A DNA stretch of 64,000 nt from Candidatus Aenigmatarchaeota archaeon (GCA_030615205.1 JAUWZS010000001.1:209492-273491); one strand, 5' to 3'; shown: positions 9,542-43,046, counted from the stretch's first letter. Numbers and translations are program-made. Notes: generated from the sequence alone by a model not told the origin.

Positions 9542-9686
9542 ATATTTTCTATGAATAGTTACAAAAATAAGTTTTTGTAAACATTCCTATCAAACTTCGA
9601 TTAAGCTGTCAGTAAATTTTGTTATAGTTGGTATATATGTTAATAATAAAAAATATAATTTATATTATATTATAACATTGTTATAT

Positions 9687-9720
9687 TATTAATTTATTAA
9701 TTTATTAATTTATTAATTTA
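9687..9720. repeat. tandem 8-bp repeat (TATTAATT)x4 in AT-rich intergenic region
   Basis: Read directly: tattaatt tattaatt tattaatt tattaatt ta. Confidence 0.9.
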
Positions 9721-9795
9721 CAGAAATATGGAACATTGTAAGGATTCTTTGCTGACAGGCTCCCCAACATTTTATACAAAATATCAGATTATTTT

Positions 9796-17239: not shown

Positions 17240-17335
17240 TGGGATTGTTGGGATTTGAACCCAAGTCTTAGCCTCCCGAAGGCTAGATCCTTTTGGCGGT
17301 GCATTTGCACCTAGACCAAACTAGACGACAACCCC
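17240..17335 (-). tRNA. tRNA-Pro(CGG) with a ~23-nt non-canonical intron in the D-arm/position-26 region
   Basis: Hand fold: acceptor GGGGUUG/CAAUCCC, anticodon arm UAGCC-UUCGGGA-GGCUA, T arm UUGGG-UUCAAAU-CCCAA. There are 43 nt between the acceptor and the anticodon stem, against ~19 expected, and they include the hairpin GGUGCA-AA-UGCACC. Confidence 0.65.
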
Positions 17336-27513: not shown

Positions 27514-27653
27514 TGCGGGAGGTGGGATTCGAACCCACGAAGGCACTAAGCCACAGGGTTTCTTATTTAGCTTGGTTTTCATCATCTTTTCATCTGCGCT
27601 TAAGATGTATAATCTTAAGCCCTGCGCCATCGACCAGACTAGGCGACCCCCGC
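27514..27653 (-). tRNA. tRNA-Leu(UAA), class II, with ~53-nt intron at the canonical 37/38 position
   Basis: Hand fold: acceptor GCGGGGG/CUCCCGC, anticodon stem CAGGG...CCCUG, loop CUUAAG-[intron]-A, long variable arm UGGCUUAGUGCCUUC, T arm GUGGG-UUCGAAU-CCCAC. Confidence 0.75.
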
Positions 27654-30251: not shown

Positions 30252-30360
30252 TGGACCGACCGGGACTCGAACCCGGAGCCTCCACCATGCCAAGGTGGCG
30301 ATCTTGGCAACTTTTTGATGAGACTTTTTCCAAAAGTTTCTACCATTGATCTATCGGCCC
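30252..30360 (-). tRNA. tRNA-Ala(GGC) with ~37-nt intron inside the D-loop
   Basis: Hand fold: acceptor GGGCCGA/UCGGUCC carrying the G3-U70 alanine identity pair. The D stem GAUC...GAUC is split by an insert containing the helix AACUUUUUG/CAAAAAGUU. Anticodon arm CCACC-UUGGCAU-GGUGG, T arm CCGGG-UUCGAGU-CCCGG. Confidence 0.75.
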
Positions 30361-34662: not shown

Positions 34663-34950
34663 ATGGTTTTAACAGATGAACAGAGAGAATTAATTGAAAA
34701 AACAATGTTACAATTACTAGAGAGAAAGGGATGGTTTACAGCACGTGATGTGTATAAAAGATTAGAAGATATAAATCCACGCGCTATAATCGGTTTTCTC
34801 GCTTATCATGGTTATAGAGATTTAAGAGAGGAATATGGTGTTAAATCACGTCGTATAATACATATCAGTAAAAAAACAGGGCGGTATGAAAACTCTATCG
34901 AGGTCTATCATCGTAAAGACGTTTCTCCTCCAGATAGCGTTGAATACTAA
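34663..34950 (+). CDS. hypothetical protein
   Basis: The ATG at 34663 is preferred over the TTG at 34642. No family recognised. Confidence 0.4.
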   Translation: MVLTDEQRELIEKTMLQLLERKGWFTARDVYKRLEDINPRAIIGFLAYHGYRDLREEYGVKSRRIIHISKKTGRYENSIEVYHRKDVSPPDSVEY

Positions 34951-35082
34951 TTTTTTTTATAAATCCATAGTTTTCGTTTTCAATAATAAAGCTGGTCAAT
35001 AATCAAGCCCATTCTCTCTTTCTCTATTATATAATAGAATAGAGAGTGGGCTAAAATGTGATACTTGGGATATAACTACCCA

Positions 35083-35226
35083 TTAAACGATATTGTTCAA
35101 TCGCAGATAACACTTATACAAGTTTGGACACATTTGCAACCAATCATGCTAGAATGCTAGACCTGATAATCTCATGGCTGAGATTATCTCTAACACGATT
35201 GGTAATTGCTGTGATTTATCGTTTAA
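35083..35226 (+). ncRNA. candidate structured RNA (four nested helices)
   Basis: H1 35083-35091/35218-35226 (9 bp). H2 35099-35106/35209-35216 (8 bp, with one pair that is G-U only on the + strand). H3 35139-35145/35197-35203 (7 bp). H4 35165-35174/35179-35188 (10 bp, loop TGGC). No long ORF is present. Confidence 0.35.
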
Positions 35227-35252
35227 CGAGAGTCCCCCGATGCTTACGAGAT

Positions 35253-35366
35253 TTAAACGGCATTTTCTTCAACTTCTAATTGTTCGGCTAATTCACGTTT
35301 ACGCCTAGCAATAGATCGCCGATGTGCAATTCCTGTAATTTGTCGGCGGTCGCCTTTTGTTGTCAT
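35253..35366 (-). CDS. small basic protein, 37 aa (speculative)
   Basis: Own translation: MTTKGDRRQITGIAHRRSIARRKRELAEQLEVEENAV. It is divergent from the 35400 operon. It is very short, so this is weak. Confidence 0.2.
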   Translation of the reverse strand: MTTKGDRRQITGIAHRRSIARRKRELAEQLEVEENAV

Positions 35367-35399
35367 ACTTATTAATTATAGTTAGACAATTATTAACAT

Positions 35400-35537
35400 A
35401 TGAGGAAATGCGCTCAATGTGGCAAGGGAATCGAAAGGAGAAAAGGTTATATAAGACACAAAGATTTGGCGGGCAAGGTGCAAGCGATCCTCTGTTCGTT
35501 CAAATGCCATAGAAAATATAACAGAGGTAATGCGTAA
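35400..35537 (+). CDS. small zinc-finger protein, 45 aa (below ORF-track cutoff)
   Basis: Own translation: MRKCAQCGKGIERRKGYIRHKDLAGKVQAILCSFKCHRKYNRGNA. Its stop overlaps the next start (TAATG at 35535-35539), which suggests translational coupling. Confidence 0.4.
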   Translation: MRKCAQCGKGIERRKGYIRHKDLAGKVQAILCSFKCHRKYNRGNA

Positions 35538-36187
35538 TGTTGAATCAAATAATGGACTTTATGTTTAACAACATATTCTATTTTATCATTGCTGGGTTTG
35601 GCATTTGGTTCTTATTGAAATATCTGAAATTTGGCTCACGAACAAAGGTAAAAGTAATAAGTAGAGGCGAAATAGAACGATTGAAGTTTATAGAGCGCAT
35701 GAAGTTCAATGAGAGTGAAACATTCAAAGACTTTGTAGTCGGCGATCGTCTTAGAGGCAGAATTACTCATTTCAGGCAGTTTACAGTTGGCAATCCGACC
35801 AAACAATTTACTCAAATGCTGGTCAAACCGATGCTGATTCGCAAACTGAATATAGTAAATCCTGTGGCAAAGCATAAGTGCGTGCAAATAGACAGCAAGT
35901 TAGTTACATTAGATGAAAAGACAAAGGCGGTTAAAATTGTTGATGGTGTTTTTTTTGATTTTCTATTTGGAATTTATTATGATACCGTTGATGAGAAGCA
36001 GCATCTCGAAAATATTAAATCTGATAATGTGCTGAGGACGGATTACGATCAGATGGCCGGTCGGTATTGGGTAAAAGGACAGCAGCAATGCGTATATAGT
36101 CCTGAGATGGCATTGCAGCTTGCATTAAAGGAAAGAGAATTAGCCATTGAGTTGGCAAAGAAGAAAGGCAAAGCTGAAACGGTGTAA
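35537..36187 (+). CDS. membrane-anchored hypothetical protein
   Basis: N-terminal TM (IFYFIIAGFGIWFLL). The remainder is soluble with a coiled-coil tail. No family recognised. Confidence 0.5.
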   Translation: MLNQIMDFMFNNIFYFIIAGFGIWFLLKYLKFGSRTKVKVISRGEIERLKFIERMKFNESETFKDFVVGDRLRGRITHFRQFTVGNPTKQFTQMLVKPMLIRKLNIVNPVAKHKCVQIDSKLVTLDEKTKAVKIVDGVFFDFLFGIYYDTVDEKQHLENIKSDNVLRTDYDQMAGRYWVKGQQQCVYSPEMALQLALKERELAIELAKKKGKAETV

Positions 36188-36191
36188 TCCT

Positions 36192-37175
36192 ATGGGACAA
36201 GACGACTATAAGAAAAGTCCATTCCATATGGAATTTCAGCCGTTCAATGCAAGACAAATGATATACTCGCAATATGGTAAGCTGATACCTCGAAATTTTA
36301 AACCGCATTTACGGAATAATACATTACTAAGACATACATTCTATAGGCAGCACCGAAATCAAAATACATTCATACTAATTTTGGGCAATGTTAGATCGGG
36401 CAAAACTTATTTTGCGCTTAAGATGGCTGAGTTGTTTATGAAAGAGCAGGGTAAGAAGTTTAGTATTAAGAAACAATGCTCATTTGATCCTATAAAGTTT
36501 TTAAAGTGGAGTAGCACAACTGAATGTTCCTGTTATGTGTTAGATGAGATACAACTTTCTATGGGCGCAAGGGAATGGTATGATGTGCAGCATAGGATAT
36601 TTAACCAATTTGCAGATATACAGGGATTCAGGCGTAATTGTTTGTTCTTGACATTGCCCAATATCGCTTACATAGATCGTCATTTGAGATTTTTGATGAA
36701 CTACGTTGTCCGCACTTTGTATCAAAGCAAAGTGATATGGTGGAAAGTAAAAATGCGCCACGAAGTTGGAAAAGGCTGGTTGGATTATGTGGGCAGCGTA
36801 AAAGTATCGCTACCCAGCAAGGAAGTAGTTGATGATTATGAAGCTATTAAGAAAATTTTCAATGATGAGCATCTGAGAACAAGCATAGAGATCTTGGAAA
36901 ACATAGGCAAGCCAAAGAAAAGGAAGATTTCAGCATATCAGATACAACAGGCGTTTAAGCGTGGCATTATTACTGAGGAAGTATTTACTGAGAAAATGAT
37001 TGATCGTGGATTTGATGAAAGTGAAGTGGCAATAGCTATGGAGAACATGGCAAAAAGCACACAAGGGACAGCCCAATTTAGTCATACTTGCGCTAAATGT
37101 GGTGCTACTTGGCAAGGAAAGAAAGAGAATCCTCGAAGTTGTCCAAGATGTGATGCGAGGAAGTGGCGTTTATAG
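36192..37175 (+). CDS. P-loop NTPase with C-terminal zinc ribbon (packaging/Zot-like or replication ATPase, unassigned)
   Basis: Walker A ILGNVRSGKT, Walker B CYVLDEIQ, and C-terminal CAKCG...CPRCD. The ATG at 36192 comes just after the stop of the previous gene. Confidence 0.65.
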   Translation: MGQDDYKKSPFHMEFQPFNARQMIYSQYGKLIPRNFKPHLRNNTLLRHTFYRQHRNQNTFILILGNVRSGKTYFALKMAELFMKEQGKKFSIKKQCSFDPIKFLKWSSTTECSCYVLDEIQLSMGAREWYDVQHRIFNQFADIQGFRRNCLFLTLPNIAYIDRHLRFLMNYVVRTLYQSKVIWWKVKMRHEVGKGWLDYVGSVKVSLPSKEVVDDYEAIKKIFNDEHLRTSIEILENIGKPKKRKISAYQIQQAFKRGIITEEVFTEKMIDRGFDESEVAIAMENMAKSTQGTAQFSHTCAKCGATWQGKKENPRSCPRCDARKWRL

Positions 37176-37282
37176 GATTAATAGAAAAGTATATCTCTCT
37201 TGTTTTATTATATCTTTACGGCTAATTAAGAGATGACTTCCCCCACACCGCCGCCGCCGTCATTCATACCCTCTCAGGATTG

Positions 37283-37348
37283 ACCGGATAGACCGGATAG
37301 CGTCCGCTCTATCCGGTTATCTTTTCTATCCGGTCATGTTCTCTATCC
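37283..37348. repeat. ACCGGATAG repeat array (2 tandem direct + 2-3 inverted copies)
   Basis: ACCGGATAG at 37283-37291 and 37292-37300. The complement CTATCCGGT at 37309-37317 and 37326-37334. CTATCC at 37343-37348; the inverted copies are 17 bp apart. Preceded by the GC-rich tract 37238-37261. Confidence 0.85.
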
Positions 37349-37352
37349 ACTT

Positions 37353-38537
37353 TTACTGCAATTCGTCCCAACTTGGTAATGTTAATGGTTGTAATTGTCG
37401 AATTTGCACAGTAGCAGTCTTATCTTCGGTTAATAATCTACTCTTATTTAAGAATCCATATTCAGCCAATTTATTGACATTAACATAAACCCAACTTCTA
37501 CCTCTATAATTTATAGCATCAACTATATCCGGCAATTCAGCCCATTTACCTAGCTTTTTACCATCATATTCCATAGCTTTTGATTCTTTTTGCAGTTTTT
37601 TAATCGTATCTAATAACCTTTGCTGCTCTTTGGTTAAAGGGATCATAAGCGGATTTGTAGTTAATTTTTTCATACATCTTTTGGCAATGTTATAATCCTG
37701 TTCAGTTGCCAAATAAAACCCATTTTCGTCTTGCTCACGCTGGTATTGATGTAATGCAGTCGAACTTTTCATCAGATCCAAAAATCTTTTGAACTGCGTC
37801 CTCATAATAATATTTTTCGGCATAAATTTTACAATCTTTTTTGCGTATGGGATTTTAACCTTTATTCTTCGCAATTTTCTCAATGCTTTCGTTATCGCTG
37901 GATCATATTCATCTGTTAATCCATTTTCTTCCATCTGTGCCTGTCGTTCCATTATTGCCTCAGTTTGTTTTATACTTGTATCAAGATTCACAAGTCCGTA
38001 TCTTCGCACATTATCTTTGCTTGGCGTTGAACTTGCCAAAGTATGAATTAAAATCGGTTTGCCATTTACAATCAGATCCTTTGGTTTGCCATCTATAACA
38101 ATAGTCGCCTTACTGCCGCTTGATGCAAAAACTTTCATTACATCACAATTTAAAATCCTTTGGCTTGTATCCTCGAAATAAATAACTGTGCCGTCCCAAG
38201 TCCATTCGGGTTCGAGTTCTGCGTTATGCCAATAGTTCAATGCCTTTTCTGTTATCCGTGTTCGTGTTTCATAAACTTTTTTTGGCAAAATATTACCAAT
38301 GTTGGATACAACCCAATCCTTACCGGCGCCTGTTTCATCATTCACGATCAGATTATAGCTTGTGAGCTTTGCATTTTCTACCAACCGCCCATTCATACAC
38401 AAAAATATAACTTCACAAGTAGCTTTTTCGCCGACAATCTTTTTCTCAAACTCTTTTATAATGTTATCAAAAAAATCAGGCGACAATAAATATTGGTCAG
38501 CCATATCTTCTACAAATTGCTCATTTATTTCTGGCAT
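37353..38537 (-). CDS. hypothetical protein with degenerate P-loop (possible SF3/D5-like helicase) and C-terminal wHTH-like region
   Basis: IVNDETGAGKDWVVSNIGNILP resembles a Walker A with D in place of S/T. VIYFEDTS is a possible Walker B. The assignment is tentative. Confidence 0.3.
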   Translation of the reverse strand: MPEINEQFVEDMADQYLLSPDFFDNIIKEFEKKIVGEKATCEVIFLCMNGRLVENAKLTSYNLIVNDETGAGKDWVVSNIGNILPKKVYETRTRITEKALNYWHNAELEPEWTWDGTVIYFEDTSQRILNCDVMKVFASSGSKATIVIDGKPKDLIVNGKPILIHTLASSTPSKDNVRRYGLVNLDTSIKQTEAIMERQAQMEENGLTDEYDPAITKALRKLRRIKVKIPYAKKIVKFMPKNIIMRTQFKRFLDLMKSSTALHQYQREQDENGFYLATEQDYNIAKRCMKKLTTNPLMIPLTKEQQRLLDTIKKLQKESKAMEYDGKKLGKWAELPDIVDAINYRGRSWVYVNVNKLAEYGFLNKSRLLTEDKTATVQIRQLQPLTLPSWDELQ

Positions 38538-38767
38538 TTTTTCACACCCTTCAATCCAAATTTTACATCTTGTTGGATCTCATCTCTAACTTCTATGGCT
38601 TTGAGAATCAGCATTTCATTATAAGTAGTATCAAGTCCCTTTTTGCGATAGACAAAAATCATTTTCCGTTTTCTCGCTATGTAGTTATCAATAAGTTGTT
38701 TCCAATCATTTGGTAGAATTTTCATTTTCCGTAGTCTTTTAATGCCTATACTTGTAATAACACACAT
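38525..38767 (-). CDS. hypothetical protein
   Basis: 80-aa ORF whose 3' end overlaps the start of the downstream gene by 13 nt (operon-like). Confidence 0.4.
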   Translation of the reverse strand: MCVITSIGIKRLRKMKILPNDWKQLIDNYIARKRKMIFVYRKKGLDTTYNEMLILKAIEVRDEIQQDVKFGLKGVKKCQK

Positions 38768-38779
38768 AGATAATCACAA

Positions 38780-39022
38780 CTATACTTTGCTTTGCGCTTT
38801 GTGAGGCGGAGGTTTGGCTTTCCTCCGCTTTCCTAATCCTATAAACATTTCTTTCAAGCGCAGTTGGGCTTTTCTGTATTGCTTATTGTAATAAAAAAGC
38901 GTAGATATGGGATACCCGAATAATTGGTTTATTTCTTTTATAGAATAGCCGACCATCAACATCAAATAAATTTCAGGTCTACTGCGCCGTCCTGTTTGCT
39001 TGAACTTTTTCTTAGGATTCAT
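38780..39022 (-). CDS. HTH DNA-binding protein (Hin/sigma-r4-like)
   Basis: MLMVGYSIKEINQLFGYPISTLFYYNKQY is a helix-turn-helix, flanked by basic tails. Confidence 0.45.
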   Translation of the reverse strand: MNPKKKFKQTGRRSRPEIYLMLMVGYSIKEINQLFGYPISTLFYYNKQYRKAQLRLKEMFIGLGKRRKAKPPPHKAQSKV

Positions 39023-39100
39023 ATGTAGACATTTGTCAATGCATCTATTTATAAGTTTAAAATTTCTTTTTTCTTATATGGCAAGAATTGATGATCGCAT

Positions 39101-39631
39101 ATGGCAAACATAGATGACATAACGGCTTTAATTGACAAGTATCCGCATAGATTTTGGGCTATATTTTTGGGCTGTATGCACAAGCCAACCCATATGAGCA
39201 AGGTTGATAAGCGGTTTGGATTCGCCAAGCGCAGCTTATACCAGCACAACATAGTAAAAGAAATGGTTCGGCTGGGCGTATTGAAATTTTATCCAAGTGA
39301 TAACAGAAAATTCAAGCTATATTTTAGTCAAGTGGATTGGCTATATTCTATGAACGGAATAAAATCTAAAAAATTGTATAAAGTCCTAAATGAACCAGCC
39401 GTAAGAGAAGCATTTGACTTTGATAAATTCAATGTAGAACCTGCGATACTAAAAATTTGGTCAGAGAATGTATTTTATGCCATAGTCCAAATCATAGCAG
39501 CTTGTTTATTTTGGAAACGCACACGGGAAAGGGATCAACTGATTTTTACTATGATCCCACATTTTTTGAGGGATAGTCATATAGACACTTTCGTTATGGC
39601 AATAATGATATTGAGAAGTGAGGGAAAATGA
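39101..39631 (+). CDS. hypothetical protein, possible N-terminal wHTH
   Basis: 176 aa. KPTHMSKVDKRFGFAKRSLYQHNIVKEMVRLGVLKF. Confidence 0.4.
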   Translation: MANIDDITALIDKYPHRFWAIFLGCMHKPTHMSKVDKRFGFAKRSLYQHNIVKEMVRLGVLKFYPSDNRKFKLYFSQVDWLYSMNGIKSKKLYKVLNEPAVREAFDFDKFNVEPAILKIWSENVFYAIVQIIAACLFWKRTRERDQLIFTMIPHFLRDSHIDTFVMAIMILRSEGK

Positions 39632-39780
39632 TTAAAGAAATAAGCTACGTTCTTGATGTTTTTACTTCACCCACTTTGACTTTCAGCAAGATTATGATGT
39701 GGTTTCTTATTCTGTTTAGTGCAGTCGCTATAATAATGATTTATGACAATTATAAAAAATATCATAAAAAGAAAAGATAG
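39628..39780 (+). CDS. small single-TM protein, 50 aa (below ORF-track cutoff)
   Basis: Own translation: MIKEISYVLDVFTSPTLTFSKIMMWFLILFSAVAIIMIYDNYKKYHKKKR. ATGA overlap with the upstream stop. Confidence 0.35.
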   Translation: MIKEISYVLDVFTSPTLTFSKIMMWFLILFSAVAIIMIYDNYKKYHKKKR

Positions 39781-39983
39781 CATGTTTGGATTATGTTATC
39801 TTTTGTTGAACTATTGCTTATGTATTCGTAGGATAGGTTTTTGGTATTGATGCCCTTGTTTGATCAAGACCAAACGTTCTCTCTCGTATGTATAAAAAGT
39901 ATAAATTAGACTTAGTTTCCTTGCCGCATAGGTCATTTTCTATATATAGAAAGTATAAATTTGCGTAAAAGAATTAATAAAAT

Positions 39984-40202
39984 ATGACTAAATTAATTAT
40001 AAAGTTTAAGAAAATTTTACCCGGAATTTATCTGCCTAGAAAAGTAGAAATTGACGCTACAGAAGATGGCTATGATTGGCACGAATTACCATTACTTGTT
40101 AAAATTGCAGATTTTTGTTACTCATTAGTTCCTAATTATGATGGAAAACTCACAAAACTACTTTTAGAAAGCGAAAATGCGCCACAAATAAAGGAGGACT
40201 GA
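39984..40202 (+). CDS. hypothetical protein
   Basis: 72-aa ORF preceded by a duplicated AAAGTATAAATT TATA-like box. Confidence 0.35.
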   Translation: MTKLIIKFKKILPGIYLPRKVEIDATEDGYDWHELPLLVKIADFCYSLVPNYDGKLTKLLLESENAPQIKED

Positions 40203-40208
40203 GCAAAT

Positions 40209-40556
40209 ATGAAATTAATACCATATCTTTTGGTGGGGAACCACCCAAAAACAGCTAAATTGAAGCAAAGAATAGTACAAATAGTCAAGATATTGAAGGA
40301 AAACCAAGGCAAAATCGAGGCAGAAGAGCTTGAAAAGAAGTTGGGCATCTCTCGAACAACGAATCCCAGCCTGTTTTACAAGCCACTGGCGTCCATGCGT
40401 AAGTGGGACTTGGTCCAATCGCATCGAAAAGTGGAAATTAATGCAGAAGGAAAGAAGAAATTCCGGACAACTTACGAACTAACACCAGGGCTTTTCTACC
40501 ACTATATAGAACGTACGCTGATTGAGCTGGCCAAAAAAGAGATCGAAATGGTGTAA
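40209..40556 (+). CDS. winged-helix DNA-binding protein
   Basis: IVQIVKILKENQGKIEAEELEKKLGISRTT...WDLVQSH. Confidence 0.45.
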   Translation: MKLIPYLLVGNHPKTAKLKQRIVQIVKILKENQGKIEAEELEKKLGISRTTNPSLFYKPLASMRKWDLVQSHRKVEINAEGKKKFRTTYELTPGLFYHYIERTLIELAKKEIEMV

Positions 40557-40983
40557 AACGTTAAAAACCTTTGATTTTCTTGAATTTTTGTTAATTTTTA
40601 GTATTTTATAGCAGAAATGCGCCACTGCTAAGCAGAGACTGAGCATTTGTGAGAGTTTGTGTTTAATTTTGTTGCGTGATAAATATTATATACTAAAGAA
40701 TATATATTGATTAGTTTTGCCTATTATCGAATAGATAGACTCTATTGTTGCTGTTTTATAGCCGATATAGCCCTCTTTTTAGCGTTTTTATGGCCTTTCT
40801 TTGTCAATTGGGTAGGCTAAAATAAGCAGATAAATATTTAAAATTAAGTAGGTTTGTATATAGAAATAGACTATATAATATATTAAATAAAATATACTAC
40901 ATAAAATAATGTGAGATAAATATAATATATAAGATATATTATATAAAAAGATAGTGTGTGATATATAGTTTGTTATAAATAAA

Positions 40984-41155
40984 AGTGAGAATTTTGGTTG
41001 ATCTGGTAGGAGTGAGATTTATGGTGTAGCAACATCGAGGTATGGCGCATTTAGTGGATTTTGGTGATCAGAGTGTTAAAGTGAAAGTGAGAGTTCGTGG
41101 CACAGTTTTGGCTAAACTAGCAAGTGAGTTTACAGGACTTTGAGTAAATGTGAGG
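40984..41155 (+). repeat. dispersed AGTGAGA(N)TT direct repeats (iteron-like)
   Basis: AGTGAGA at 40984, 41011 and 41086. AGTGAGT at 41123 and TGTGAGG at 41149. Related AGTGGAT and AGTGTTA lie between them. The array sits downstream of a very AT-rich tract. Confidence 0.6.
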
Positions 41156-41201
41156 TATTCCGAACGCAAATAAATTTAAGCTTCAAAATTTAATAAATTT
41201 T

Positions 41202-41918
41202 ATGGGTTTAAAGCAAAAATTAAAGCGGATATTTCGAATAGGCGCCAAAGATGAAGCGCTTCAAAGCGATTTAAAGCGCTCGAAAGCGCTCGAAAGCGCT
41301 GCAGATTTAGAAGATAAATACCCTTATCAAACTCCAACAGAACCTACCGAACTCTCACGGCCTCTCGAAATTCAAAAGGATTCATTGCAATTGGGAATCG
41401 CAGCTGGCTACACAGGTAAATTTATACGGGAAATTGAGCGTTCTTTGGGCAGAATCGAGACACATATGGTCTCTAAGGATTGGTTTTCATCTAAATTCGA
41501 GGATCGGTCACCCGAATTAATAGAACTTTTGAGCAACATTAAAACACTCATCCAAGAGCATGATAATACTGTCTCAAAGCGATTTAAAGCGCTCGAAAGC
41601 GCTTCAAATCGCATACAATCTATTGCAACCAAAGCCCCAAAACCTATTAGACAGAAACTGATGAAAGAAGTAGAAACTATTGAAGCAGCTCTGCCTCTTA
41701 CTTCAAAGATGAGAAAACTTGTTTCTGTTGTAAAAGATTCTGGAAAATTAAGTTATGATGAACTGTGTACAAAACTCAATGTCAGCCGATCATCACTTCG
41801 CGGTCTTCTTGCTAATACTATGAAACGAACAAATGAAATCGAACGATTCTCTGTTGACGGCAAAGGATGGGTGCGCTATAAACATCCAAAAACCACACAA
41901 ATTCCTGATTTTCCATAA
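41202..41918 (+). CDS. hypothetical protein with C-terminal wHTH; contains embedded 10-bp-phased AAGCGCT repeats
   Basis: C-terminal LSYDELCTKLNVSRSSLRGLLANTMKR...GKGWVRYK. The N-terminal and middle parts are helical. Confidence 0.5.
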   Translation: MGLKQKLKRIFRIGAKDEALQSDLKRSKALESAADLEDKYPYQTPTEPTELSRPLEIQKDSLQLGIAAGYTGKFIREIERSLGRIETHMVSKDWFSSKFEDRSPELIELLSNIKTLIQEHDNTVSKRFKALESASNRIQSIATKAPKPIRQKLMKEVETIEAALPLTSKMRKLVSVVKDSGKLSYDELCTKLNVSRSSLRGLLANTMKRTNEIERFSVDGKGWVRYKHPKTTQIPDFP

Positions 41919-42269: not shown

Positions 42270-42439
42270 ACTTGAGAATCCATAGCTCCAATTGGCGCAC
42301 TTAACATACTAAATATATTTTAAACCCGTCAGAACAAATAATTATTGGTTAACTATCACTAGTATAATCAACTTCGCAAACAAAAACATGAAAACAAATT
42401 TAAGTCACAACATTCTATTTATTCATTACGTAAATTCAC

Positions 42440-42558
42440 AGCGGAGTGGAGCAGTCAGCGACGTATTCGCCTGCAATGGAGTGCTCGTCGGGCTCATATA
42501 AAAGCTAAAAGCTTTTTGAGAGACCCGAAGGTCCTAGGTTCAAATCCTAGCTCCGCTA
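42440..42558 (+). tRNA. initiator tRNA-Met(CAU) with two introns (D-loop and canonical 37/38)
   Basis: Hand fold: A1-U72 acceptor AGCGGAG/CUCCGCU. The D stem GAGC/GCUC encloses a ~30-nt loop containing the hairpin GCGA-CGUAU-UCGC. Anticodon stem UCGGG/CCCGA with three G-C pairs, loop CUCAUA-[~24 nt]-A. T arm CUAGG-UUCAAAU-CCUAG. Confidence 0.7.
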
Positions 42559-42573
42559 TTTTTTCTTTTTTTT
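42559..42573 (+). terminator. oligo-T tract after tRNA-iMet
   Basis: ttttttcttttttt lies immediately 3' of the discriminator base. Archaeal terminators are oligo-T. Confidence 0.4.
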
Positions 42574-42579
42574 AAATTT

Positions 42580-42993
42580 TTGGTGAAGACCGTGCCGAGA
42601 ATCAAAGGTTTTGAAAAGCTTGTTGAACTTGTCAAACATCTACGGAGCGAAAGCGGCTGTCCATGGGACAGGGAACAAACGATTGAGAGTTTAAAAGAAG
42701 ATGTTCTCGACGAGGCAAATGAATTACGAGAAGCTATAGAAAAAGGCGATTATGAAAACATTAAAGAAGAAATCGGCGATTTGATTTGGGGACTAGTTCT
42801 TATGACACAGGTTGCAGAAGAAGACGGGAAATTCGATCTTGATGATGTTTTTAAAGACGTCAACGAAAAAATGGTCCGAAGGCATACCTATGTTTTTGGG
42901 GATGTCAAAGCAAAAACAGCTGAAGATGCAGCAAAGGCATTCAATGAGGCAAAAGCAAATGAAAAGAAAAAAAGTGGGCCCACCCAGAATTGA
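42580..42993 (+). CDS. mazG: MazG-type nucleoside triphosphate pyrophosphohydrolase
   Basis: LRSESGCPWDREQT...EANELREAIE...EEIGDLIW (EExxE/D motifs). TTG start. The last 19 nt overlap tRNA-Val on the opposite strand. Confidence 0.85.
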   Translation: MVKTVPRIKGFEKLVELVKHLRSESGCPWDREQTIESLKEDVLDEANELREAIEKGDYENIKEEIGDLIWGLVLMTQVAEEDGKFDLDDVFKDVNEKMVRRHTYVFGDVKAKTAEDAAKAFNEAKANEKKKSGPTQN

Positions 42994-43046
42994 ACTGGAG
43001 TCTCCACCTTGTAAGGGTGACATCCTAACCACTAGACTATAGGCCC
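42975..43046 (-). tRNA. tRNA-Val(UAC), no intron
   Basis: Hand fold: acceptor GGGCCUA/UGGGCCC, anticodon arm UCACC-CUUACAA-GGUGG, T arm UCCAG-UUCAAUU-CUGGG. Confidence 0.8.

Follow-up and report, generated by a model that had tools for sequence, protein, structure and literature searches.

Inverted repeats and a hairpin next to the att site of a plasmid-like insertion in a small archaeal genome

The insertion and its genes

The 144-nt stretch at 35083-35226 lies in a window of 64,000 nucleotides, by which we mean the whole stretch of DNA that was analysed. The window is part of a genome assembly of 1.17 Mb in 36 contigs and holds ribosomal-protein genes as well as intron-containing tRNAs. Judged from this gene content and from the genome sizes of the relatives, which range from 0.3 to 2 Mb, the host appears to be a DPANN-type archaeon. 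The features of the locus are collected in Table 1.

Just upstream of the stretch a 102-aa protein is encoded, and a homolog of this protein led to two further loci, L034 and L035. L034 has the Memo gene and small winged-helix genes in common with the window. The metagenome contig L035 is collinear with the window from 34620 to ~35010 and then continues directly with 39863-40994. Since L035 does not contain ~35011-39862, these 4.85 kb are an insertion. On either side of the insertion is an imperfect direct repeat (ATCAAGCCCA..TTCTCTCT and ATCAAGACCAAACGTTCTCTCT), also written as ATCAAG(C/A)CC...TTCTCTCT. The left repeat reads ATCAAGCCCATTCTCTCTTTCTC, the right repeat ATCAAGACCAAACGTTCTCTCTCGT and the empty site ATCAAGCTCAAACGTTCTCTCTCGT. 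attL and attR are not fully identical, and the crossover at attL is near 35003-35012. The 144-nt structure occupies nucleotides 72-215 inside the left end of the element, and the crossover is therefore ~70 nt outside it. Most likely, ~35011-39862 is a plasmid-like element which was integrated by site-specific recombination into the small archaeal genome. An AT-rich repeat tract at 40650-41160 is not part of the insertion and is shared by L035; as the origin of the element this tract was rejected for that reason.

The 394-aa replication protein of the element consists of an MCM-like AAA+ core and a C-terminal winged helix. Its family, PF27228, is large, and some members are fused to prim-pol (PF09250) or zf-CHC2 domains; no prim-pol domain was found in the 394-aa protein. 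The AlphaFold (AF2) model of the protein has a pLDDT of 88, and when this model was compared with the PDB by Foldseek the best 50 matches were all MCM-containing structures (top E 3e-9). From the model we read the protein as a probable mini-MCM-type replicative helicase. The P-loop ATPase is in the relatives always linked to the 216-aa membrane protein. Its AF2 model (pLDDT 78) matches best, among PDB structures, the N-domain of the Zot/pI-type phage assembly ATPases, and this match is weak (E 5.5e-4, TM 0.28/0.44). Sequence searches of the PDB with the replication protein and the ATPase gave no match, and only the fold searches were informative. Among 117 other genomes of the order, a search for the ATPase gave a single match, of 30% identity.

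Neither an integrase (Pfam, PHROG) nor an excisionase gene was recognised among the open reading frames of the element. The genome has 14 matches to PF00589, all of them outside the element, and its tyrosine recombinases include a XerA homolog. L037, the locus with the closest relative of the replication protein, carries an integrase. For the hypothetical 37-aa ORF next to the structure and for a neighbouring ORF of 45 aa no homologs were found in any fetched locus. The 37-aa ORF may therefore be no gene.

Table 1. Features of the element and of the 144-nt stretch (positions in the window)
Feature	Position	Strand	Sequence or character	Basis or place
attL	34985-35030		host-side arm, crossover region ATCAAGCC/CA, element-side arm	L035 empty site, L036 junction
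47-nt imperfect palindrome	35006-35052		perfect 16-bp core TCTATTATATAATAGA	overlaps attL element side
144-nt stretch	35083-35226	none assigned	four nested inverted repeats	folds and positional check
Helix 1	35083-35092 / 35217-35226		TTAAACGAT(A) / (T)ATCGTTTAA, 10 bp	
Conserved non-coding block	35093-35129			left half of helix 2 and most of the 'unpaired' loop
18-nt motif, copy 1	35095-35112	-	TGTTATCTGCGATTGAAC, consensus TGTTATCTGYGWTTGMAM	
Helix 2	35099-35106 / 35209-35216		AATCGCAG / CTGTGATT, 8 bp, one G.T	
Inner hairpin (helices 3 and 4)	35139-35203	none assigned	65 nt	DNA fold
Helix 3	35139-35145 / 35197-35203		ACCAATC / GATTGGT	
Tandem duplication	35146-35161	+	ATGCTAGA x2	repeat analysis
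Helix 4	35165-35174 / 35179-35188		GATAATCTCA / TGAGATTATC, loop TGGC	
Right halves of helices 2 and 1	35205-35226		ATTGCTGTGATTTATCGTTTAA; also given as ATTGCTGTGATTTATCG	
Hypothetical ORF, 37 aa	35253-35366	-	arginine-rich	ends 27 nt from the structure
216-aa membrane protein	35537-36187			gene linkage in relatives
P-loop ATPase	36192-37175	+		model fold match
ACCGGATAG array	37277-37348		two copies in direct and two in inverted orientation	ATPase and helicase genes converge on it
MCM-like replication protein, 394 aa	37353-38537	-		family PF27228 (MTBMA_p00010_2nd)
18-nt motif, copy 3	39102-39119	-	degenerate (15/18)	divergent promoter gap, start of the 176-aa gene
18-nt motif, copy 2	39794-39811	+	TGTTATCTTTTGTTGAAC	right end, inverted relative to copy 1
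attR	39838-39885		element arm, ATCAAGACC, host arm AAACGTTCTCTCTCGT	L035/L036 comparison

Helices, repeats and the related element L036

A preliminary description of this DNA had reported four nested helices in a region without a long open reading frame. All four helices were found exactly at the positions given there, and 35083-35226 is overlapped only by ORFs of 31-51 aa. As RNA, the + strand of the stretch has a minimum free energy of -38.6 kcal/mol with z -4.7 (200 shuffles). For 1200 dinucleotide shuffles, of which one reaches the observed energy, z is -4.3. The - strand folds to -45.8 kcal/mol with z -6.1; none of the 1200 dinucleotide shuffles, whose energies have a heavy-tailed distribution, reaches this value, the best of them being -42.5. 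With DNA parameters z is -5.1. The stretch thus folds better than its shuffles on either strand, and that both strands fold well is expected from the symmetry of the DNA. In a scan of the 64 kb with a sliding window of 150 nt, the minus strand of 35076-35225 took rank 3 of ~2,555 (GC-corrected z -3.8), with a score similar to that of the intron-bearing tRNA gene at 42426-42575.

The nested pattern had also been considered unlikely by chance. The gap-tolerant palindrome score of the stretch (50.1) is barely above the maxima obtained with block-shuffled 64-kb sequence (42.6-49.5). The pattern alone is therefore not overwhelming. We have given up this score, as it is not discriminating in AT-rich DNA, where shuffles score nearly as high. 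The other top-scoring site, 9606-9758, is a low-complexity AT repeat with a fold z of -2.2. After a window-wide look-elsewhere correction the four-helix pattern is only modestly above chance.

The single G-U pair of helix 2 had been taken as an argument for a + strand transcript. Helix 3, however, is extendable to 15 nt with a complementarity of 87%, and two positions in this extension which are A.C on the + strand are G.U on the - strand. The - strand gains these two pairs and folds 7 kcal/mol better, so that the argument for the + strand fails. The robust structural core of the stretch is the inner hairpin. Its 15-bp stem, which includes the two A.C/G.U positions, is followed by a bulge and by a 10-bp stem that ends in the loop TGGC. 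The DNA fold of this hairpin has z -4.8 (+) and -7.0 (-). The asymmetry of the bulge is due to the tandem duplication of ATGCTAGA. The 47-nt palindrome at the att site likewise folds well as DNA (z -5.3).

Helices 2 and 4 can be traced to a short repeat. Units of CTGNGATT are found at 35099(-), ~35167(-), 35178(+) and 35209(+), and the two helices arise because these CTGNGATT(T)ATC-type units form two nested inverted pairs. CTGNGATT is part of the 18-nt motif, and TGTTATCTG is listed beside it as a motif. The two 18-nt copies that are inverted to each other within the element agree at 14/18 positions, which is only marginally significant (p ~0.04-0.07). With up to three mismatches the motif has three matches in the 64-kb window, all inside the element, where 0.94 would be expected window-wide.

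In searches for known RNA families, Rfam at its gathering thresholds recovered only tRNAs from the window. At permissive E-values the best match in 34900-35450 had 17.6 bits against a threshold of 88 (IS605-orfB-II). The structure is single copy in its own genome of 1.17 Mb. BLAST for DNA homologs in 60 relatives gave only chance-level matches of at most 31 nt, a covariance model retrieved no copies from 70 family genomes, and no occurrence was found in phage and plasmid collections or, with exact patterns, in IMG/VR. Across 371 genomes of the phylum the palindrome pattern was found only in the window's own genome, and scans of the genome contigs detected no homolog. An intrinsic terminator was considered and rejected, as a scan of 34800-35600 found no hairpin followed by a T-run and no terminator-like site.

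After the BLAST-level searches had given no homolog, a covariance model built from the single sequence gave one match, to L036 (1254-1390, minus strand; E 0.011 without filters). The ATPase encoded by L036 is 70% identical to that of the window. L036 has an uninterrupted order of element right end, att core, 45-bp palindrome, left block and structure homolog. When reverse-complemented, L036 18-229 aligns first to 39778-39862 of the window and then to 34985-35129. In this alignment the junction has the attP arrangement that a Campbell model predicts, and it confirms the boundaries of the element. In L036 the whole att unit has the opposite orientation to the 216-aa/ATPase module and is located downstream of the ATPase. 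The same inverted pair of 18-nt motifs is present as well, at 1361-1378 and 1523-1540, and copy 1 of the window matches the right-end copy of L036 at 16/18 positions, a value reached by none of 300 shuffles. In the joined form of both elements the 18-nt copies are ~135-145 nt apart and lie around the att core and the AT-rich palindrome.

The two elements are unevenly conserved. The block at 35093-35129 is ~80% identical (CGxTATTGTxCAAxCGCAGATAACAC...AAGTTTGGAC), and palindrome and block together are conserved to ~80% or more, compared with 70% for the ATPase proteins. Best conserved are the 32-nt 'unpaired' loop and the left half of helix 2. Indels between the window and L036 break every frame of the block, and a small protein encoded there was rejected on this ground. 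In L036 4 nt are missing from the right half of helix 2, and of helix 1 only 5-6 of 10 pairs are kept. Apart from this deletion the right halves of helices 2 and 1 are conserved in sequence, and the counterpart of 35205-35226 (ATTGCTGT----TATCGTTTGG) pairs with a different, new upstream partner. Helices 3 and 4 cannot be aligned at all; in the same place L036 has an unrelated 77-nt hairpin with a 14-bp stem (CGATAACAGCAATG/CATTGCTGTTGTCG), whose DNA fold gives z -3.2 and -3.4. A statistically significant hairpin of ~65-77 nt is thus present at the same position in both elements with different sequences. The 47-nt palindrome is highly conserved in sequence, yet its symmetry is broken in L036 (z +0.75).

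The preliminary description had favoured a + strand RNA with four helices and had named homologs and covariation as a way to check it. L036, the sole homolog and hence a weak test (n = 1), does not keep the four-helix fold. Its strand equivalent to the + strand of the window has z -1.1, no better than shuffles, and the other strand z -3.1; the consensus folds of the two sequences are weak (-6.9 or -12.7 kcal/mol). Since there is no Rfam family and L036 lacks the four-helix architecture, we also rejected a discrete four-helix RNA gene. The conservation statistics are thin, as they rest on L036 as the one homolog. From the comparison of the two sequences, the four-helix object would be a composite of a conserved block of the protein-binding type, a hairpin conserved in position and variable in sequence, and outer pairings that are lineage-specific.

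Possible functions of the region

We suggest that 35083-35226 is a protein-binding and hairpin site which acts at the level of DNA in replication or recombination, and we give this reading a probability of roughly one half. The 144-nt stretch would most likely be the inner part of a ~400-bp non-coding control region of the element. Among the options of the preliminary description, a palindromic DNA site of the element fits the data: the unit lies beside att, the element has an MCM-like helicase, and the helices are inverted copies of motifs. The option of a four-helix RNA is not supported.

We suggest the following arrangement. The excised circle would carry in this order the right end with its 18-nt motif, the att core, the AT-rich palindrome, the conserved block with the inverted motif and the 65-nt hairpin. 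The repeats might be binding sites for a DNA-binding protein encoded by the element; the MCM-like helicase with its winged helix is a candidate, and so are the two small HTH proteins of 80 aa. Helices 3 and 4 make up one real long hairpin, and helix 1 encloses the entire stretch. Opening or bending of the duplex could take place at the hairpin or cruciform and the adjoining AT-rich palindrome. Use in the initiation of replication, as with the stem-loop origin of pRN1, would be one possibility; equally, a recombination complex could assemble here at attP, as at an arm-type region. As the element is without an integrase, the role as attP arm needs a recombinase in trans. We regard as shown the insertion with its att sites, the pattern of conservation, the repeats, the hairpins and the fold of the helicase. 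For the 35083-35226 region we infer protein binding and a role as either origin or attP arm.

It is conceivable, if decidedly unlikely, that the motif, the AT-rich palindrome, the inverted motif and the hairpin make up one symmetric control unit around the att core, which is split and switched off by integration and rebuilt by excision. A host recombinase of the Xer type or another recombinase would then be required in trans, and the hairpin could be a loading site of the mini-MCM or a folded-DNA substrate of recombination. If true, this would be a new coupling of replication to the integration state in an undescribed archaeal element family.

Instead of acting as DNA, the hairpin might act in a transcript, which we consider somewhat unlikely. 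Such an RNA may be a 3' end on the minus strand, a stabiliser or a barrier to read-through, following the 37-aa ORF or, in L036, the ATPase operon. It may be a small + strand RNA for which the 47-nt palindrome, with its TATA-like centre, provides the start, or a retroregulatory hairpin similar to lambda sib which joins the transcript of the 176-aa/50-aa operon only when the element is excised. The minus strand is indeed the best folder, for the whole stretch as well as for the inner hairpin, and is helped by the two G.U pairs. The single mismatch in the stem of L036 is G.U-compatible on the equivalent strand, the one with z -3.1 versus -1.1, so that G.U-type pairs favour the window's minus strand in both elements. 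In both contigs the best-folding strand is downstream of a gene. Moreover, the hairpin is kept as a structure and not as a sequence, as is often the case in RNA stems. Nevertheless, Rfam has no match, the consensus fold of the two sequences is weak, and the part conserved best is the one left unpaired in the four-helix model. The 37-aa ORF is without homologs, and the motif copies at the right end and in the divergent promoter gap lie outside any single plausible transcript. Termination in archaea does not require hairpins, and neither did the scan find a hairpin with a T-run nor does oligo-T follow the hairpin on the minus strand.

That the palindrome has no function and arose by chance in AT-rich DNA, or is decaying there, for instance as the trace of a local inverted duplication kept by descent, is unlikely in our view. 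The scores of the block-shuffled sequence, the one shuffle that reaches the energy of the + strand and the missing conservation of the four-helix architecture in L036 would all agree with it, and the tandem ATGCTAGA duplication and the 32-nt asymmetry resemble decay. On the other hand, no shuffle reaches the energy of the minus strand, the inner hairpin has a z of -7.0 and its position is taken in L036 by an independent hairpin, the non-coding blocks are better conserved than the ATPase, and the motif copies are confined to the element. A signal on a single-stranded DNA form, which would serve packaging, priming or, as a folded site, recombination, is known from the f1 intergenic hairpins, the folded attP of the CTX phage and the attC sites of integrons. 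Here we regard it as very improbable. The best fold match of the ATPase is to the Zot/pI-type N-domain, the ATPase is always paired with a membrane protein, the hairpin is imperfect, bulged and near att, and the element lacks an integrase. Yet the ATPase match is weak, the replication protein is an MCM-like helicase and not a rolling-circle HUH Rep, and the crossover is ~70 nt outside the structure and not within a folded stem. Hardly credible is a miniature transposable element (MITE or palindromic element of the IS200/IS605 type) within the plasmid-like element. The length of ~144 nt, the terminal 10-bp inverted repeat (TTAAACGATA/TATCGTTTAA), the foldback shape and the sub-threshold match to IS605-orfB-II nearby are reminiscent of it. 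A MITE or IS was rejected because there is a single copy only, in the own genome, with none in the 60 relatives, the 70 family genomes or the phage, plasmid and IMG/VR collections; in addition the homologous region of L036 has the same place relative to att, and the terminal repeat is not conserved there.

To our knowledge, little has been learned about the mobile elements of ultra-small archaea, and next to nothing about their cis-acting sites. The insertion described here is an undescribed mobile element. New is a precise integrative element of 4.85 kb in a reduced archaeal genome; it is documented by an empty site, by attL and attR, and by the attP-like junction of a relative. New is also the combination, as predicted from the models, of a mini-MCM-type helicase with a module of a Zot/pI-fold ATPase and a membrane protein in an element without a recognisable integrase. 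The conserved 18-nt motif and the position-conserved hairpin are concrete targets for binding and replication assays. We note that inverted protein-binding repeats can give rise to a strong fold statistic (z -6) as a side effect, and that one homolog sufficed to break the four-helix RNA model.

Comparison with known systems

In an attP site of the lambda type, repeated arm-type sites flank a short core. The region resembles such an arm, as the structure is 72-215 nt from the crossover and a repeated motif, which may be of the arm type, is present on both sides of the core. Furthermore, the right end, core, palindrome, block and hairpin are inherited together as a unit, which is inverted as a block in L036. 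It differs in that the element is without a recognised integrase and the identity of attL and attR is imperfect; arm sites are also normally not long hairpins. With the origins of archaeal chromosomes and plasmids whose AT-rich unwinding element lies between inverted ORB-like repeats, the region shares two inverted 18-nt motifs which bracket an AT-rich palindromic centre (TCTATTATATAATAGA) and an MCM-type helicase in the element. However, there is no adjacent Orc1/Cdc6 gene, the motif is unrelated to the ORB consensus, and the 144-nt structure is mostly outside the bracketed centre. The two nested inverted pairs formed by the four CTGNGATT-type units, and the further motif copies at the other end of the element and in the divergent promoter, are similar to an array of iterons or operators in plasmids, where Rep or a repressor binds dyad-symmetric repeats, but the units are short, degenerate and irregularly spaced.

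More distant elements with the module of ATPase and 216-aa membrane protein contain non-homologous intergenic palindromes of ~150 nt. They are found in L012 (6737-6891; z -4.8 and -6.9), L015 (2369-2518; z -4.5 and -5.4) and L019 (499-649; z -5.5). L012 and L013 share the outer arms of the palindrome and differ in its centre, where other repeats have taken over. In L023, L025 and L031 the observation does not hold. A recurrence of ~150-nt palindromes among the relatives, clear only for L012, L015 and L019, is thus suggestive.

The nearest characterised precedent is the replication origin of the crenarchaeal plasmid pRN1, with 35083-35226 at most a candidate for this class. This origin is a stem-loop of 100 nt whose structure is required and which can be moved to another position (PMC4234260, PMC3869888). 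[quoted passage not shown] 2014, PMC4234260; Joshua et al. 2013, PMC3869888). In pRN1 the stem-loop is located directly 3' of the gene for the replication protein, ORF904. This protein contains a prim-pol domain, and its recognition triplet GTG in the loop is of importance (PMC4234260, PMC3869888). Both systems are small archaeal replicons with a long imperfect stem-loop in their non-coding DNA, and each has a gene of its own for a helicase-type replication protein that includes a winged helix. Their relatives preserve the fold of the stem-loop and not its sequence, as seen here with the 77-nt hairpin of L036. In contrast to pRN1, the structure is ~2.1 kb away from the helicase gene and next to att, the 394-aa protein has only the MCM-like ATPase and the winged helix, and the loop is TGGC and not GTG. 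The position 3' of the replication gene is here held by the ACCGGATAG array. Being directly downstream of the helicase gene, this array is by position the closer analogue of the pRN1 stem-loop, and it is at least as good a candidate for the origin as the hairpin region. Beyond the choice of the origin, control DNA rich in hairpins and repeats is well known beside the att sites of small integrative replicons.

Boundaries of the element and its left end

The 4.85-kb integrative element has precise bounds (35011-39862) and is nested in a block of about 8 kb. Its attachment sites (att), the empty site in a related metagenome contig (L035) and the uninterrupted junction in a contig carrying a related element (L036) are listed in the table. 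In L036 the unit consisting of right end, att, palindrome, conserved non-coding block and hairpin is inverted relative to the module of 216-aa protein and ATPase. This arrangement implies that a large inversion or a modular reshuffling separates the two elements.

The sequence of the palindrome at the left attachment site (attL) is kept in L036, where a single T-to-G change disrupts the perfect 16-bp core. Folded as DNA and compared with shuffled sequence, the palindrome reaches a z of -5.3 in the window versus +0.75 in L036. Compared in this way, the constraint seems to lie on the sequence rather than on the symmetry. Close by, a span of 177 nt holds three of the 12 copies of TTAAACG in the 64-kb window (35083, 35220 on the minus strand, and 35253). 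The last of the three lies at the stop of a 37-aa open reading frame, and an alternative pairing of this copy with 35220-35226 is possible.

Coordinates of the features in the window and in related loci
Feature	Window	Related loci	Remarks
Attachment sites of the element	34985-35030; 39838-39885		
Empty site		L035 521-545	
attP-like junction, uninterrupted		L036 1254-1556	related element
47-nt palindrome	35006-35052	L036 1425-1471	overlaps attL
GC-rich tract, then four ACCGGATAG units	37238-37348		two direct, two inverted; between convergent ATPase and helicase genes
ATAGCGGA repeats		L036 1165-1200	equivalent place, after the ATPase
Long hairpin, about 155 nt		L012 6737-6891; L013 3243-3397	
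tRNA genes, 96-140 nt	17240-17335; 27514-27653; 30252-30360; 42440-42558		four of the five found by Rfam

Repeats, hairpins and folded tracts

The ACCGGATAG array is a candidate for an origin or iteron array. The long hairpins of the relatives L012 and L013 have conserved outer arms, ACCCCCCC.../...GGGGGGGT, with TTCC-N-GGAA palindromes, and in their centre GAATATAT is swapped with TGTT tandem repeats, the two elements being near-identical.

Elsewhere, the top fold outlier of the whole window (41226-41675, minus strand; z down to -4.95 in 150-nt windows) falls within a 238-aa open reading frame and is due to AAGCGCT repeats phased at 10 bp. An AT-rich intergenic tract at 9606-9758 carries repeats of the type (TTAATTTA)n and is closed by the 11-bp inverted repeat CTGTCAGTAAA/TTTGCTGACAG; folding gives this tract a z of just -2.2. 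The length of the four tabulated tRNA genes indicates introns. In the window ARAGORN reported only a tRNA-Val (42974-43046) and missed these four intron-containing genes.

Encoded proteins

No integrase or excisionase was recognised in the insertion (35253-39780). [quoted passage not shown] The replication protein itself (394 aa, 37353-38537, minus strand; family PF27228) is predicted to fold into an MCM-like AAA+ module and a winged helix and lacks the MCM N-terminal domain. PF27228 counts more than 130 metagenomic members, and in some of them prim-pol or zf-CHC2 domains are fused to the protein.

The 216-aa membrane protein and the P-loop ATPase form a conserved two-gene module (35537-37175) shared with seven related loci (L012, L015, L019, L023, L025, L027 and L031). 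In larger relatives, proteins of 370-721 aa, one with DUF2341, are encoded near it. This module may serve virus or vesicle morphogenesis, and its ATPase weakly matches the fold of the Zot/pI-type assembly ATPases.
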